Positions 1 to 59,492 of a stretch of 64,000 nt of DNA are shown here, in pieces (position 1 is the stretch's first letter; each line of letters starts with the position of its first letter). The stretch is from Eledone cirrhosa (lineage: Eukaryota). The notes beneath the pieces are model-generated. The model worked only from the letters and a program-made list of their open reading frames with translations, was not told the DNA's origin and did no database searches. The stretch is from contig OZ024745.1 in NCBI GenBank assembly GCA_964016885.1, positions 66,278,001-66,342,000 of the forward strand, read 5' to 3'. A program made the translations under genes and the position numbers.

Positions 1-281
1 CACCTCATTTTCACAGATGAGAAAAGTATATTTTCTCGCCTGTCTTCTAGTCCAGCAGTCGAAAGCAGTGGGAGGGACTGTCCTGACGAAGGCCAGTTAA
101 GCCTGAAATGCATAGACGGTTGTCCTCCTTGCGTCTGCTGGACATCACCAGAGGGCGTTAGCCTCCCTCCTCCCCCGGTATTTCCATAGCTACGGCTTCC
201 TGAAACCGTATTTCCTTGGAGATACAAAATATTTATACATATTGTATAAAGCTATGCTTGAAGCGAAATCATATTTCTTTT
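1..281 (+). mobile_element. 3' end (pseudo-LTR) of a PLE or retrozyme running into (TA)n; begins before the window
   Basis: Contains a hammerhead motif (76-121) and ends directly in a TA array, like the PLE 3' ends later in the window. Confidence 0.6.
76..121 (+). ncRNA. Minimal type-I hammerhead ribozyme
   Basis: Stem I gactgtc/gacggtt; core CTGACGA (83-89); stem II aggc-cagttaa-gcct; GAAA (105-108); palindromic stem III tgca; predicted cleavage after TA at 114. Confidence 0.8.
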
Positions 282-500
282 ATATACATATATATATATA
301 CATATATATATAATATATATATATATATATATATGTATATATAATATATATATATATATATGTATATATAATATATATATATATATGTATATATAATATA
401 TATATATATATGTATATATAAATATATAATATATATATAAAATATATATATATATATATATATAATATATATATATATATATATATATAATATATATACA
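282..500. repeat. (TA)n microsatellite
   Basis: Imperfect TA dinucleotide array. Confidence 0.95.
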
Positions 501-828
501 GAGTACCCGACCTCCCATGGGTACAAGCTGAAGCATATAAACAATATGCCCCCGCACCCCCCACTGCAAGGTGGTCGTGGAGGTGCCACGGCAAAAAAGC
601 ACCCAGCCCACACTGTAAAGTGGACGTGTAGGCGCCACGAAAAAGCACCCAGCACTCACTGTAAATGAGGTTGGTGTTAGGAAGGGCATCCAACTGTAGA
701 AATCAAGCCAGATCAGTTCCTGTATGAGCAAGGCATGGTCAGTCGACCAGACACTGCACACAAGAGGACAACCCGTCTAATCCATGCTAGCGTGGAAGAA
801 CGGACGTAAAACGGTGATGATGATGATA
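501..828 (+). mobile_element. RTE LINE 3' UTR and (GAT)n tail
   Basis: Matches the 3' UTRs of the RT-bearing copies at 5572-6443 and 8081-8925 (aaaagcacccag repeats, ggaagggcatcc...gtagaaa, gatgat tail). Confidence 0.75.
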
Positions 829-2790
829 TGTATATATAATATATATATATATATATATATATATATATATATATATATATATATATGTGTGTGTGTGTTA
901 AAATAATATATAATTGGTATTTTGTGTGTTTGAAGTAGGTTTTATATCCCACACTTCTATTTACTTATTCATAATTTGGATAGAAAGATGGAAATATATC
1001 CTGCAGGCTACTGTATTTTTAAGGGGTGAAGCCAAACAAGATATCCCTTACGGGGATTTATAGACATTATAATTAAACAAAATTTTTTCTTCTCCTGCTT
1101 TTGTTCTCCTCATCCCCTTCTCCCTCCTTCTTTTTTATAATAATAAGAGGAAAGGTTATGATGGTTAATCAATGCTGCCTGCCCATTTCATACTAGAGTG
1201 ATAGCCAAAAATGTGAGAAAAATAGAAGTTTAACAATACCTGAAATAGGAAAAACAGATAATGTGGCATTATCACAAAGTTGTTATAATCCAAATTGAAA
1301 TAGGAGGCACAAGGACAGTAGAGAGAAGTTTGAATATCTGGTTAAAGATGTTAGATGCAGAGGTGGATTTTCTGACTTTACAGAAAGTTTGTTTTTTTTG
1401 GCATAATAAAACTACAAGAAAGGTGCTAGATAGTTAAGGTTGCAAGAGACAGTTTGATATTTAACTATCCAAATGCTGAAAGAAGAGTGCATGCAGGATA
1501 GTTTCCTTACCTTGTCTGCATCTCAGAGATCCAGCAGATAGCACTTCCATAACTGTAAGGTTTATCCTAAACTAGAAATTCTCTCTGTTAGCACTACCAG
1601 GCCAGATATTTCTGGAAAGTATTCATGGTTGAAAATTCTAGTCAATTGATTTTTGTCAATGTATAAAATTGCTCTGATAACATCAGCACTTTTACCCATA
1701 GCATAATGAAGTGGAATTTTCATTGACTATATTGCCTGACTGAGAGAGAACTGTGAACACCTGAAGACATTACAGTTGGTATTGAACTCCACAATTATCA
1801 TTTGACTCCAAACTGCAGCTTGGTCAAAGAAACAAACTGGAATCACATTTTACAAATAGTGAACACATTTACTTTCAAAGAAATGCAGGGCATGTCACAT
1901 CTTCTGTGCATGACTACATATCATTAGTCATAACATGTCTAGTCCTCCACACAATGGCTGTTGACAGCAATTGAATTACTTGATCTGTGGAATGTGTGCC
2001 TATCAAATTTGGCAAATGTGTAGGTACTCCATTCACACAGATATGAACTGGACCAAGGCACAACAGTCAGCCTGTAATAGATAACAGAGGCAATGTAAAT
2101 ATCCACAATCTCATCCTGAACTGTTCATATTTATATCTAAACAATACATTATAATTTTATTTAAGAATTTTTTGTTAAGTAATGTTCTAAGCATTAGCTT
2201 ACTAATGAAAGTGTCAGATATTTTAATAAATTTCTTTAAATGTTTATTTTCAAAATTAATTGAGACAATGGCAGTGTGTTTCATTAGAAATATGGTAACA
2301 AAAAGAAATAGATAAAGAAAGAATCATGTCCAGTTACATAGTCTGAATATAGAAAATATGAATAATAGTAATGTATATTACAAAGATTTTTATATTTACT
2401 GATACACCAAGTGAAATACATTCTTGTCACTTAATTTTTAATAGGAACACAAATCAATATTCTTATAGAAATTAGTGATACTGGCATTTTAAAAATCATG
2501 TTATTTTTTCCTTTGAGGGCTATATTTAAGTTTGTATTTTTAGATAAATATTTTAAAATAATTATCTATTAGTTATTTTTGTTTCATTTAACTGTTATGA
2601 TTTTTCGTGCTACTAATTTTAAGTGTCATGTGCCTAAAGCTAATGAATTTCTTGAACATTTTGAAGTAATTTGTTGCACAAATATGGCAAAATGGTTAAA
2701 TTTGATTATCATTTTAAAAAAAGAGGAAGAACTACAACTATTGCTGATACTATTACTACTACTTGTAATAATAATGGTGATGATGATAAT

Positions 2791-2934
2791 AATAATGGTT
2801 TCTGATTTAGGCACAAGGCCAGCAATTCTGGGACAGGGTAAAGTCAATTGAATCGACCCCAGTGTGTGATTGGTAATTTATTTCATCAACCTTTATTTCA
2901 ATGACCTTATAAGGATAAAAGGCAAAGCTAACCT
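2791..2934 (-). mobile_element. SINE fragment (family of 13585-13925)
   Basis: Reverse complement of ctttgcctttcatcctt...ggccttgtgcctaaatcagaaaccattatt. Confidence 0.6.
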
Positions 2935-3489
2935 AAGACTTGTCCAACTGTTAATCAATACTTTTCTACAATATGTTTGGTCTCTACCTTTCAATTTCTT
3001 AGATGTTACGCTTATGAGAGGAAATGAAAAAAAAAACATTTCCCATAATTTCTGATCTGTTTCTTCTTGGGGTTGCAAGACCAAGTGAAAACATGCGAAA
3101 TTGAGCTGGCCTGTGAGCCCCTCCGAGGCCATATCGCACTGGATGGCATCCCATATGCTCTGGGGGGATTTGACATCTACAGGGGGAAGAGGAGGACTGA
3201 TGTCTACTGGGTGGAGCCTGGGCCGGTTCCAAGTCTCACAGGTGACTTCATGTTCCTCAACCACAGTGGGTTCCATTGTGTTGTGGATAACCCTGTTGAT
3301 GAGGACACGCCAAGAGGTTACTGATGAAAGAAATGCTAGCAAAGCGAGTGAGACCGGACACCAAAACCATCATCTCTAACAGCTAAGGTGACCAAGGCAA
3401 CCTCTCGACAGCAGCTTTTATCAAGACCAACATTTCATCTGTTTGGCAAGTGCCCATCCCAAATGTGCCCAAGGATGCTACACCCTCTG

Positions 3490-3830
3490 CTCTCTAATGT
3501 CCCAAATCCTCCACTCCTGAGGCTAGCAAAAACCCCCAAACTAATCAAAGGTGATGTCTTGACTGCAGTCACAGTGGTTGCCTCAGCGGACACAATCTTC
3601 CACTCCACCGAGGAGATTATAGCTGCTCTTCGGGTCAAGCATGCTAAGCCACCTGCAGACCTCAGACCCATACTCCCACCTGATTCTCCCCTTCTCTTTG
3701 TGGCATCAGACGCAGACATCATGTCTGCCATCATGTCCTTCAATGCCAGCAGCAGCAGAGGTACTGATGGTCTCCAACGTGGCCACCTCAAAGTGTTGCT
3801 ATCCATCTATCAGCCAAAGCCAAATGCTGC
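3490..3830 (+). pseudogene. Decayed N-terminal RT region of a CRE-like non-LTR retrotransposon
   Basis: ORF 3388-3837 contains ALRVKH..P and IMSAIMSFNASSSRGTDGLQRGHLK, resembling the SF..GS.GGPDGLRP.HLK motif of CRE-clade RTs; no catalytic core follows. Confidence 0.45.
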
Positions 3831-57885: not shown

Positions 57886-58185
57886 ACACATATATATATA
57901 CATATATATAGATATATATATACATATATATACATATATATATATACATATATATATATATATATATACATATATATATATACATATGTATATACATATG
58001 TATATATATATATATACACATATATATATATATATATATATATATATATATATATATACACATATATATATATATATATATATATATATATATATATATA
58101 TATATATATATATATAAAAGACGTAAAATAAGAAAATATTTTTTAAAAAATTTTTAAAAAATTTTTTACTTACTTACTTAAATTT

Positions 58186-58267
58186 ACTCCAACTAATTAG
58201 TTTCTGCAATGGGATAAAGACAGTTACATAATCCAACTGTCGAGAATTCATTGCGTCATCAGGGAGT
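58186..58267 (-). ncRNA. Hammerhead ribozyme, inverted copy
   Basis: Reverse complement of 58852-58933. Confidence 0.82.
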
Positions 58268-58851
58268 CTATTCTCAGCTGAGCCTCCAGGCAATGCGCGG
58301 ACACTGGCGGCTCATATAAAAATAATAATTCGGTAGAAAGAACAGCTAGGCGAGGACTGGATTCTATGTACTGAAATTCTCACTGCTTCCAGTCAAATGG
58401 CCGATTCTAAAGAATCAATCACGTGACATAGAGGCTAGTTAGAAGGAATGGGTTGGTAAGATGACTGACGCCTACTAACACCCCAAAAAAAATTTTGAAG
58501 TGGTTTTGGCAGGTTTGCTCGACAAATCAGTGATTTGGAGATAAATATAGATAATTTAATATATCAACTAACATAGGCGCACAGATGTACGTCCATGCCA
58601 GCAAATACACAGGTTATGTCATAGTACCTTTTTTGGGGTGTTAGTAGGCGTCAGTCATCTTACCAACCCATTCCTTCTAACTAGCCTCTATGTCACGTGA
58701 TTGATTCTTTAGAATCGGCCATTTGACTGGAAGCAGTGAGAATTTCAGTACATAGAATCCAGTCCTCGCCTAGCTGTTCTTTCTACCGAATTATTATTTT
58801 TATATGAGCCGCCAGTGTCCGCGCATTGCCTGGAGGCTCAGCTGAGAATAG

Positions 58852-58933
58852 ACTCCCTGATGACGCAATGAATTCTCGACAGTTGGATTATGTAACTGTC
58901 TTTATCCCATTGCAGAAACTAATTAGTTGGAGT
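58852..58933 (+). ncRNA. Type-I hammerhead ribozyme
   Basis: actcc / CTGATGA / c-gcaatg..gacagtt..aactgtc..cattgc-a / GAAA / ctaattag palindrome / TT / ggagt. Confidence 0.85.
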
Positions 58934-59410
58934 AAATTTAAGTAAGTAAGTAAAAAAATTTTTAAAAATTTTTTTAAAAATATTTTCTTATTTTACGTCT
59001 TTTATATTATTGTTCTGCACCCTCCTGCATTGAACCACCTAGGTACTATGACATAACCTGTGTATTTGCTGGCATGGACGTACATCTGTGCGCCTATGTT
59101 AGTTGATATATTAAATTATCTATATTTATCTCCAAATCACTGATTTGTCGAGCAAACCTGCCAAAACCACTTCAAAATTTTTTTTTGGTTTTTGGGGTGT
59201 TAGTAGGCGTCAGTCATCTTACCAACCCATTCCTTCTAACTAGCCTCTATGTCACGTGATTGATTCTTTAGAATCGGCCATTTGACTGGAAGCAGTGAGA
59301 ATTTCAGTACATAGAATCCAGTCCTCGCCTAGCTGTTCTTTCTACCGAATTATTATTTTTATATGAGCCGCCAGTGTCCGCGCATTGCCTGGAGGCTCAG
59401 CTGAGAATAG

Positions 59411-59492
59411 ACTCCCTGATGACGCAATGAATTCTCGACAGTTGGATTATGTAACTGTCTTTATCCCATTGCAGAAACTAATTAGTTGGAGT
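59411..59492 (+). ncRNA. Type-I hammerhead ribozyme, second tandem copy
   Basis: Same as 58852-58933. Confidence 0.85.

Follow-up and report, generated by a model that had tools for sequence, protein, structure and literature searches.

Hammerhead motifs with palindromic helix III and long stem II in Penelope-like elements and non-coding repeats of Eledone cirrhosa

We analyzed 64,000 nucleotides from Eledone cirrhosa (assembly GCA_964016885.1, contig OZ024745.1, positions 66,278,001 to 66,342,000 of the forward strand), which we call the window. It contains Penelope-like elements (PLEs) with two types of ORF, non-coding repeats, and seven families of hammerhead or hammerhead-like motifs (A to G). 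The features are as follows, with the parts of each motif given 5' to 3' and H17 being the predicted cleavage site.

40..200, plus: family A repeat (the tested part of a non-coding unit of ~330 nt)
76..121, plus: hammerhead A; stem I GACTGTC/GACGGTT, CTGACGA, stem II of 15 nt (A-U, G-C, G-C, C-G, loop CAGTTAA), GAA, ATGCAT, H17 = A at 114
30286..30535, minus: 250-nt fragment of the family C 3' end
30508..31920, plus: type 1 PLE ORF, 5'-truncated, with Pfam RVT_1 and, at its C-terminus, a GIY-YIG region
32296..32334, plus: hammerhead B, ~380 nt past the type 1 stop codon; TGAAC, CTGAAGA, stem II of 12 nt (U.U, then UGC/GCA, GAAA loop), GAA, AGTACT, H17 = T at 32329
33829..36970, minus: type 2 PLE (family C), with a 713-aa frame at 34829-36970 and a 3' end at 33829 that adjoins (TA)n
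33852..33902, minus: hammerhead-like motif C; AGTTT, CAGAAGA, stem II of 13 nt (U.U, then 3 pairs, loop GTTAA), GAAA, helix III, H17 = T at 33857, AAACT
37304..38960, plus: 3' part of a family D element, with a remnant of the type 2 ORF C-terminus (37306-37488) and then ~1.3 kb of non-coding sequence that includes the hammerhead
38746..38887, plus: hammerhead D; 9-pair stem I, TTGAAGA, stem II of 105 nt (a rod starting C.A, A-U, G-C; z = -3.33), GAA, ACGATCGT, H17 = A at 38878
46561..48348, minus: type 2 PLE ORF (family E type), 5'-truncated, identified from translations and tblastn
48460..48530, plus: hammerhead E; 8-pair stem I, CTGATGA, stem II of 36 nt (14 pairs with one C.U mismatch; z = -3.39), GAA, ATGCGCAT, H17 = A at 48522
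49380..51479, minus: type 1 PLE ORF with Pfam RVT_1, whose frame breaks ahead of the endonuclease
54334..54450, minus: hammerhead F; TTATT/AATAA, CTGATGA, stem II of 88 nt (a rod, A.A then 8 pairs; z = -4.35), GAA, ACACGTGT, H17 = C at 54339
58112..59690, both orientations: family G array of three units with (TA)n flanks
58852..58933, plus: hammerhead G, with identical copies at 59411-59492 (plus) and 58186-58267 (minus); ACTCC/GGAGT, CTGATGA, stem II of 51 nt (C.A, GCAATG/CATTGC, internal loop, 8-bp hairpin; z = -4.09), GAA, ACTAATTAGT, H17 = T

Five of the seven families (at 32296, 33852, 38746, 48460, and 54334) are found close to PLE 3' ends, with the motif 30-110 nt from the end of elements that have RT-like and GIY-YIG endonuclease regions. 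If copies are in tandem, the next ORF begins 250-360 nt downstream of the motif. Copies are also found 5'-truncated, as inverted arms, and with (TA)n alongside. The top 150 genome-wide matches to the type 1 element are 99% identical, many have intact 775-aa frames, and tandem copies are spaced ~4.2 kb apart. The ORF at 49380..51479 resembles the one at 30508-31920 (from translations and from tblastn at locus L061). The 713-aa type 2 frame had no Pfam match, but the C-terminal stretch of the type 2 protein aligns with the type 1 protein over its GIY-YIG part (E = 2e-4), and the type 2 protein has at least 1291 homologues of ~700 aa in public data.

Type 2 ORFs end ~1 kb upstream of the D, E, and F motifs, on the same strand. 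For family E, this arrangement was seen at two loci (L087 and L089); in the window, hammerhead E sits in a short inverted arm (~48399-48575) that adjoins a minus-strand element. For family F, it was seen at 8 of 30 loci. Family D has at least 1242 first-look candidates. The 5' truncations of its copies fall at many different points and the copies end near 38945, and one locus (L121) has a tblastn match to the type 2 ORF at 107-289.

Families A and G are repeats of ~330 and ~555 nt without ORFs, arranged in tandem and as back-to-back arms beside (TA)n. For family A, the first-look candidates number at least 2061, with 91-93% identity. Its copies form back-to-back inverted arms and short tandems: copies on the same strand are spaced 325-333 nt apart, and pairs of minus and plus arms occur often. 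PLE protein matches were found in 3 of 30 family A loci, with inconsistent placement, and in none of 30 family G loci. The family G array in the window is an inverted unit (58112-58629) followed by direct 559-nt units (58630-59188, and 59189 to ~59690). A first look genome-wide gave at least 775 candidates for this family, 99% identical and in arrays of up to nine units; the spacing on the same strand is 553-559 nt in 53 of 54 cases. Both families are like retrozymes, akin to the non-LTR retrozymes of animals.

A reading of the DNA alone (the sequence-only reading) had proposed seven families of hammerheads with enlarged stem II and palindromic stem III. We scanned both strands with a strict descriptor: CTGANGA, 6-140 nt, GAA, an even palindrome A...T of 6-14 nt, and H, enclosed by a stem I of at least four contiguous pairs. 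Pairing in stem II was not imposed. This gave seven matches in the window, from five families (76-121, 32296-32334, 48460-48530, 58852-58933, and 59411-59492 on the plus strand; 54334-54450 and 58186-58267 on the minus strand), and it bore out the reported palindromes, stem II lengths (15, 12, 36, 88, and 51 nt), and first pairs. (TA)n is abundant in the window and the short box CTGANGA occurs 38 times on the two strands together, so we considered whether the motifs could be chance matches in AT-rich repetitive DNA. However, 200 local dinucleotide shuffles of the window gave a mean of 0.015 strict matches (maximum 1), and a random genome sample of 600 kb had 27 strict matches against 0.05 in shuffles. 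These counts refute the chance reading, to which we give almost no weight, and the motifs belong to repeat families with kept cores.

The complete core, stem I, and stem II are present in most copies of six families. Intact motifs were found in 34/46 copies of family A (in the fetched loci), 30/30 of B and 32/33 of D (copies other than the window's), 45/52 of E, 21/32 of F, and 83/85 of G (these are copy instances; the G loci overlap, and some copies are counted twice). The proposed hammerhead at 38746 holds for its family rather than for the window copy, which has U at C3 (TTGAAGA instead of CTGAAGA): C3 is C in 32 of 34 aligned rows and T in the window and one other copy.

The seventh proposed family, at 33843/30300, differs from the proposal. 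We found no hammerhead on the plus strand of this region, even with a relaxed scan. On the minus strand, all 35 aligned copies have A at U4, and helix III is a non-palindromic hairpin (GCA/TGC with a 9-nt loop, also described as 4-bp), so by its sequence family C is a core variant. The fragment at 30286..30535, which differs from 33829-34078 at one base, carries the same motif at 30309-30359 (minus strand), also with A at U4. Family C nevertheless has at least 1352 first-look candidates. Its multiplication with A at U4 shows that elements can spread without an intact core. For Naiads, which thrive without canonical hammerheads, Craig et al. (2021; PMC8557442) argue likewise.

Could all of these motifs be inherited passengers that are catalytically dead, or nearly so, in elements that spread without cleavage? 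The proposed cause would be the loss of the G10.1-C11.1 pair, the insertion of an N.N position, and the great length of stem II. Besides family C, this is consistent with the poor cleavage of published PLE minimal hammerheads, dimers included (PMC4209133), and with the Anolis element, whose hammerhead mutants left in vitro insertion unaffected (PMC11167929). But six unrelated families keep the 11 core letters, A15.1-U16.1, a non-G H17, and a self-complementary helix III, and subfamilies with different stems remain paired. Such a pattern would hardly be expected unless the fold was under selection in the master copies. Also, the youngest families (B, G, and D) are the most intact. We consider it unlikely that the motifs are dead, although this is the alternative that we take most seriously.

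As the sequence-only reading had claimed, stem II ranges from 12 to 105 nt, and a U.U, C.A, A.A, or A-U position precedes helix II in every window family (A-U in A and E, U.U in B, A.A in F, and C.A in G). Four families have stem II of 36-105 nt, and relatives reach 116 nt. All of the long segments fold as a single hairpin that closes at positions 2 and n-1, with z of -3.3 to -4.4; at most one of 200 shuffles folded as well. In family E, 18 distinct variants give 99.6% pairing in stem II, compared to 34-65% in slid controls; seven pairs vary, by one-sided changes only. In a bystander family with ACTAGT, both sides are changed in 10 of 14 pairs, which was reached by 0 of 500 shuffles. In a diverged relative of G (L120), stems I and II differ together yet are still paired.

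G10.1-C11.1 was said to be absent. It is never the first pair in the window families (and is in just 3 of the 27 strict matches from the random sample), but its absence depends on the numbering, as the second pair is G-C in the motifs at 76 and 58852. Classical mutagenesis ties this pair to activity. The lone N.N position that separates the core from helix II may be a lineage habit of this genome. Such a position would be expected to make the A9/G10.1 metal site weaker, giving slow or cofactor-dependent motifs.

The enlarged stem II could instead be a dedicated domain for protein binding, as the sequence-only reading had suggested, or for targeting. The long rods fold well, the C.A next to the core is kept in D, G, and the relative of G, and the Anolis PLE hammerhead cleaved only if the element's protein was added (PMC11167929). 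However, stem II differs in length between subfamilies of D (84-116 nt) through distal indels, and 14 nt are missing from one G copy, which speaks for a loose constraint on this part of the sequence. The rods have no visible sequence motif in common across families, and A, B, and C lack a long stem II. We think that such a domain is quite improbable. The long stem II would most simply be a tolerated rod-like extension of helix II, given what has been published.

The variety of palindromes was argued to favor a dimeric fold. If we did not constrain the content of helix III, then 27 of 43 matches were still perfect palindromes (shuffles gave 0.3 matches). Among distinct helix III elements, 8 of 17 are perfect palindromes, as would be expected for dimer-type PLE hammerheads, and three more are one change off. 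In every family, the cofold of two copies beats two monomers by 4-12 kcal/mol. But judging from the sequences, a helix III of 1-3 bp with a tetraloop (the classic type-I form of animals) fits the palindromes just as well, so the palindromes by themselves would not prove a dimer.

In that case the motifs would act as single hammerheads. Every palindrome of 6-10 nt can form such a hairpin, with tetraloops UGCA, GUAC, GAUC, GCGC, ACGU, and AAUU; the 10-nt palindrome of family G gives three pairs and AAUU. Hammerheads whose helix III is a non-palindromic hairpin of 3-4 bp also exist in the genome (11 in 600 kb versus 0.8 in shuffles). However, a loop has no need to be self-complementary, and helices of 1-2 pairs are reported to be too weak for monomer cleavage (PMC4209133). 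Given these points and the cofolding energies, we doubt that the motifs act as monomers.

We propose that these are type-I hammerheads of PLEs and of their non-coding derivatives, predicted to cleave transcripts after H17, likely as copies paired through helix III (probability roughly 0.78). The predicted targets are the elements' own transcripts. Against this proposal, many copies stand alone or lie in opposite orientation, so that their transcript would hold no partner motif. Extrapolating from the literature, two motifs in a multimeric transcript would combine into a double hammerhead, and unit-length RNA that has 5'-OH and cyclic-phosphate ends would be set free. This RNA could be ligated into circles, which could be copied by the PLE enzyme.

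Rfam models miss every motif: there was no match at the gathering score in the window, and the hammerhead models gave none at E ≤ 10 on stretches of 86 and 71 nt. The published descriptor for minimal hammerheads limits stem II to 7+10+7 nt and represents helix III only as 'gaaannuh' (PMC4209133). These results support the suspicion that standard descriptors miss the forms with long stem II.

The closest known systems are the minimal hammerheads of Cervera and de la Peña (2014; PMC4209133), which occur in the flanking repeats of PLEs, have a palindromic helix III, and are weakly active as dimers. As here, they are type I, with an open stem I of 3-7 pairs, no recognizable loop-loop contact, a helix III cut to a self-complementary stretch, and an extra nucleotide after A9; they lie near PLE ends and have thousands of scattered copies. 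Their descriptor has optional extra N10 and N11. In their 56-row alignment, the first pair of stem II is A-U in the rows Marsupenaeus, D. willistoni, and Latimeria 2, the palindrome of Saccoglossus 2 is 10 nt long, and one row has an additional A ahead of GAAA. Precedents for the palindromic helix III, an extra nucleotide on each side of stem II, and an A-U closing pair are published. In contrast to the idea that a short stem II is established for PLE hammerheads, helix II was described there as larger than usual (7-8 bp). In that set, helix II comprises 4-8 pairs and its loops measure 3-9 nt, helix III is mostly 4 nt, and G10.1-C11.1 is highly conserved (>80% in the consensus), whereas here a symmetric N.N precedes helix II, the palindromes range from 6 to 10 nt, and stem II is 36-105 nt long in four families. 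We found no precedent in print for stem II of 36-116 nt, in a comparison that covered sources other than the candidates of Lünse, Weinberg and Breaker (RNA Biol 2017). According to reviews that cite that paper, its variants are also associated with PLEs, have a very short palindromic stem III, and cleave as dimers, aided by tandem arrangement.

There are further relatives. Animal non-LTR retrozymes (PMC7229834; Li, Clavereau and Pollet 2026, preprint 10.64898/2026.07.22.740005) are, like families A and G, tandem repeats that lack ORFs and contain one type-I hammerhead in each unit, in a PLE-rich genome, and in HHR_Amex2 from axolotl helix II likewise starts with a U.U mismatch (PMC7229834). 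The published units are mostly 170-400 nt and canonical, with loop 1-loop 2 contacts kept; family G differs in its 553-559 nt unit and 51-nt stem II. PLEs make tandem and inverted insertions, and an insertion bias towards (TA)n is reported for the Naiad clade (PMC8557442). The core halves of the Naiad 'HHR_half_core' are 35-50 nt apart and do not fit hammerhead descriptors, which is a partial precedent for the long stem II, but Naiad elements have an N-terminal endonuclease, while here the GIY-YIG stretch is C-terminal and the intervening sequence folds as a helix. Poseidon PAc from Anolis (PMC11167929) also has a minimal PLE hammerhead. Its ORF starts within stem II, instead of after the motif as here, and its need for the element's protein makes it a model for cofactor dependence. 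The long stem II and the odd closing pair are variations on the known theme of PLE hammerheads.

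By sequence and fold, we predict that the hammerhead motifs in this window are genuine ribozymes of the Penelope and retrozyme types. The window is AT-rich (24-40% G+C), with dense (TA)n-type microsatellites, and the genome is 3.0 Gb. Our strict descriptor required CTGANGA, 6-140 nt, GAA, an even-length A...T palindrome of 6-14 nt, a non-G nucleotide, and a stem I of at least 4 contiguous pairs; pairing within stem II was no part of it. This descriptor gave 7 matches from 5 families in the 64-kb window. (Across 200 local dinucleotide shuffles of the window, the mean was 0.015 matches and the maximum was 1.) The matches are:

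76-121, + strand, family A
32296-32334, + strand, family B
48460-48530, + strand, family E
54334-54450, - strand, family F
58852-58933, + strand, family G, with copies at 59411-59492 (+ strand) and 58186-58267 (- strand)

The core (C3 U4 G5 A6 N7 G8 A9 ... G12 A13 A14, the A15.1-U16.1 pair, and a non-G at H17) is complete in all five families. The layout is that of type I hammerheads: three helices surround the core, and the 5' and 3' ends lie within stem I, which has 5-9 pairs. The sequence-only reading of this DNA, which had proposed seven families (lettered A to G here) with enlarged stem II, is correct for these five on the palindromes, the length of stem II and the closing "pairs".

The other two families deviate from the core in ways that the sequence-only reading did not mention. 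Family D does have the full core at the family level, but its copy in the window (38746-38887) reads TTGAAGA, and this U at C3 is the sole reason that it misses the strict descriptor. C is present at C3 in 32 of 34 aligned rows, so family D has a full core, a 105-nt stem II and ACGATCGT. Family C is a 250-nt stretch that occurs twice in the window. On the + strand at 30300 and 33843, there is no hammerhead even if one mismatch is tolerated; the hammerhead-like motif is instead on the other strand:

33852-33902 and 30309-30359, - strand, family C motif: stem I of 5 pairs, stem II of 13 nt, non-palindromic helix III of 4 bp

The first box of this motif reads CAGAAGA, and all 35 rows have A at U4.

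Copies elsewhere in the genome usually keep the strict motif intact: 34/46 for A, 30/30 for B (collected via protein search), 32/33 for D, 45/52 for E, 21/32 for F, and 83/85 copy instances for G (some G loci overlap and were counted twice). In 600 kb of randomly sampled genome, the strict descriptor had 27 matches, versus 0.05 in shuffles. If this sample is fair, then about 45 strict motifs per Mb corresponds to the order of 1e5 motifs across 3 Gb.

Helix III is self-complementary in six of the seven families. We re-scanned the window and the 600 kb of random genome with the content of helix III unconstrained and found 43 matches, versus 0.3 in shuffles; 27 of these were palindromic. Among 17 distinct helix III elements, 8 were perfect palindromes and three others were one change away. 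Because palindromes recur when helix III is unconstrained, the self-complementarity is real and is not an artefact of the descriptor. Hammerheads whose helix III is a non-palindromic hairpin of 3-4 bp were also in excess (11 matches in 600 kb versus 0.8 in shuffles), so monomer-type and dimer-type hammerheads exist side by side in this genome. Hairpin-type families were seen at random loci L205, L211, L228, L227 and L194 (for example, ACC-ACT-GGT). A separate compact family, which is absent from the window and was seen at sampled loci L066, L082, L103, L134, L203, L215 and L005, has stems I, II and III that co-vary and a near-invariant loop 2 (TAACAA or TAATAA), which hints at a possible conserved function for this loop.

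The stem II helices were recovered without being imposed by the descriptor. Taking 3-8 pairs and a 3-10-nt loop as the range for helix II of minimal PLE (Penelope-like element) hammerheads (Cervera and de la Pena 2014), stem II is within it in A, B and C (15, 12 and 13 nt) and outside it in E, G, F and D (36, 51, 88 and 105 nt). Each of the four long stems folds as a single rod that closes at its second and second-last bases, with the end bases unpaired. These folds are more stable than expected (z = -3.33 for D, -3.39 for E, -4.35 for F and -4.09 for G; 0-1 of 200 shuffles were equal). In family E, the 14 pairs of stem II are 99.6% paired across 18 distinct variants, versus 34-65% if the partner strand is slid. 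Seven of these pairs vary, on one side only; with zero two-sided changes, covariation in this family is weak. In a diverged relative of G (locus L120), the C.A position is kept, stem I has one more pair, and stem II pairs have changed on both sides. In a family found by chance in flanking sequence, whose helix III is ACTAGT or ACGCGT and whose stem II is 14 nt, 10 of 14 pairs have two-sided changes, which was matched by 0 of 500 shuffles. Stems I and III of this family were pre-selected by the scan; stem II, in which 4/4 pairs co-vary, was not. Within families, the distal part of stem II varies through indels. The suggestion that a long stem II carries a protein-binding domain finds no support in these tests. 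Loop 2 of A (CAGTTAA, in 76-121) and of C (GTTAA, in 33852-33902) have GTTAA in common, in families that are otherwise unrelated.

The first stem II "pair", which lies between the core and helix II and which we write as N.N, is A-U, U.U, U.U, C.A, A-U, A.A and C.A in families A to G, respectively. G10.1-C11.1 directly before G12 is thus missing from every family in the window; only in A and G does G-C follow, as the second pair. The claim that the base of stem II is never G-C holds for the window, with the proviso that for A and G it depends on the numbering, but it is false for the genome as a whole: 3 of the 27 strict matches in the random sample begin with G-C. These families are naturally occurring variants on which the weight of the 10.1-11.1 pair and of helix II length in dimeric hammerheads could be tested.

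Families B, C, D, E and F lie in the 3' regions of elements with ORFs of Penelope-like elements (PLEs), on the same strand. The relevant ORFs in the window are:

30508-31920, + strand, type 1 PLE ORF (Pfam RVT_1 and GIY-YIG)
34829-36970, - strand, type 2 ORF (no Pfam match)
46561-48348, - strand, type 2 ORF (no Pfam match)

Hammerhead B is about 380 nt past the stop codon of the type 1 ORF. Family B is very young: the 150 best matches in the genome share 99% identity, many of them with an unbroken 775-aa frame, and the tandem spacing is about 4.2 kb. In the element with the 34829-36970 ORF, the family C motif and the 3' end, which adjoins (TA)n, are about 30 nt apart. For D, E and F, tblastn against sampled loci shows a type 2 ORF on the strand of the hammerhead, ending about 1 kb upstream of it; in tandem copies, the next ORF begins 250-360 nt downstream of the hammerhead.

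The two type 2 ORFs (about 600-700 aa) are similar to one another. Neither they nor four homologues match any Pfam family at E ≤ 10, RVT_1 and GIY-YIG included, and they match no solved structure by sequence. Only in their C-terminal stretch do they align to the type 1 protein, in its GIY-YIG part (E = 2e-4). The "type 2 PLE" label and the putative endonuclease identity depend on this one pairwise alignment, which is a limited basis. Public data contain at least 1291 type 2 homologues, about 700 aa long, most of them on contigs of 2.3-3 kb.

Copies of these elements are 5'-truncated at many points, and back-to-back inverted arms are frequent. The truncation, the inverted arms and the tandem layouts are like those described for PLEs (PMC8557442). 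At 37461-37689, 57122-57345 and 61106-61287 there are short tandem duplications (117, 112 and 91 nt, respectively; 94-99% identity); the one at 37461-37689 is part of the family D element and recurs in other copies. The window also contains a LINE-type element, and 40856-42146 recurs at 91% in 53016-54277, adjoining hammerhead F:

41200-44337, - strand, intact LINE-type ORF of 1045 aa (endonuclease/exonuclease/phosphatase and RVT_1)
44208-44900, - strand, upstream frame with two Cys-rich repeats ending FTHLP, possibly ORF1 of the same element

Families A and G carry no ORF. PLE proteins matched at 3 of 30 loci for A and 0 of 30 loci for G (tblastn). G is arranged in tandem, with 53 of 54 same-strand spacings at 553-559 nt and arrays of up to 9 units. 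The unit of A is about 330 nt and occurs in short tandems (325-333 nt between units on the same strand, 4 cases) and, more commonly, as inverted pairs of arms. Among all sampled loci, we found no autonomous partner that shares sequence with the A unit, and for G we found just G copies or a 71% relative. As ORF-less tandem repeats with one type I hammerhead per unit, A and G resemble animal non-LTR retrozymes (PMC7229834; preprint 10.64898/2026.07.22.740005). Beside family A, about 325-380 nt before the window start, there is a tRNA-like match (L031:1080-1137, - strand; 28.1 bits, with the gathering score at 29; E = 0.033). At the same locus, the MIR807 model matches both strands of L031:1328-1529 as a long palindrome, which probably represents a pair of inverted family A arms.

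As had been anticipated for long-stem-II forms, standard tools miss these motifs: both curated RNA models and the published descriptor for minimal hammerheads fail. Rfam had no matches in the whole window at the gathering score, and no Rfam hammerhead model matched 55-140 or 32280-32350 at E ≤ 10. In E-value mode, the (TA)n-type microsatellites give hundreds of spurious microRNA-like matches; for the window and six loci, the best 150 of 407 and best 150 of 229 matches were just mir-297-type microsatellite look-alikes. The misses stem from the longer self-complementary helix III, the extra position that flanks helix II on both sides, and the inserts in stem II, which reach about 116 nt. A large population of hammerhead motifs is thereby overlooked. 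Knowing this helps to annotate PLEs and retrozymes and to loosen search descriptors.

Dimer cofolds are favored over two monomers by 4-12 kcal/mol. From these energies and from the cited work on such motifs, we infer that multimeric transcripts would cleave after H17 as double hammerheads paired through the self-complementary helix III. The predicted H17 positions are 114 (A), 32329 (B), 38878 (D), 48522 (E), 54339 (F), and 58928, 59487 and 58191 (G). Three things make slow or cofactor-dependent cleavage likely: the G-C pair is missing, the activity reported for PLE hammerheads is low (PMC4209133), and the Anolis PLE hammerhead cleaves in a protein-dependent way (PMC11167929). Hammerhead mutants of the Anolis element left insertion in vitro unaltered (PMC11167929), and family C spread although it has A at U4; both show that cleavage may be dispensable for spread. 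A bolder idea, which we consider very improbable, is that this lineage has rebuilt a protein-gated ribozyme: the N.N position would replace the G10.1-C11.1 metal site and leave the RNA inactive alone, the family-specific rod of stem II would act as a handle, and the element's own dimeric RT-endonuclease would join two motifs and trigger cleavage. If true, this would imply a specific recognition code for autonomous elements and their non-coding parasites.

Among 56 representative PLE motifs, the published consensus is NNN CUGANGAH GNNNNN...NNNNNC GAAAN-palindrome-NU H NNN (Cervera and de la Pena 2014, PMC4209133), helix II has 4-8 pairs with loops of 3-9 nt (supplement of PMC4209133), and G10.1-C11.1 is termed highly conserved (PMC4209133). 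The exceptions among the 56 are an A-U first pair in Marsupenaeus, D. willistoni and Latimeria 2, U-A in Hydra, a 10-nt palindrome in Saccoglossus 2, and one row with an additional A before GAAA; the descriptor from that study makes additional N10 and N11 optional (PMC4209133). The axolotl motif HHR_Amex2 has U.U at the base of helix II (PMC7229834). Each oddity of the closing pair thus has a precedent, and what is distinctive here is the symmetric N.N position as a rule. A stem II of 36-116 nt is undescribed for PLE hammerheads in the literature that we searched (the supplement of Lunse et al. 2017 may bear on this point). The nearest precedent is the Naiad "HHR_half_core," whose halves are 35-50 nt apart (PMC8557442). 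The motifs belong to a known kind of ribozyme, with a lineage-typical closing position and an unusually long stem II, and the accepted picture of what these ribozymes are stays unchanged. Compared to the minimal hammerheads of PLEs (PMC4209133), families B to F have the same 3' location and six of the seven families share the self-complementary helix III, but all seven differ in that G10.1-C11.1 is absent.
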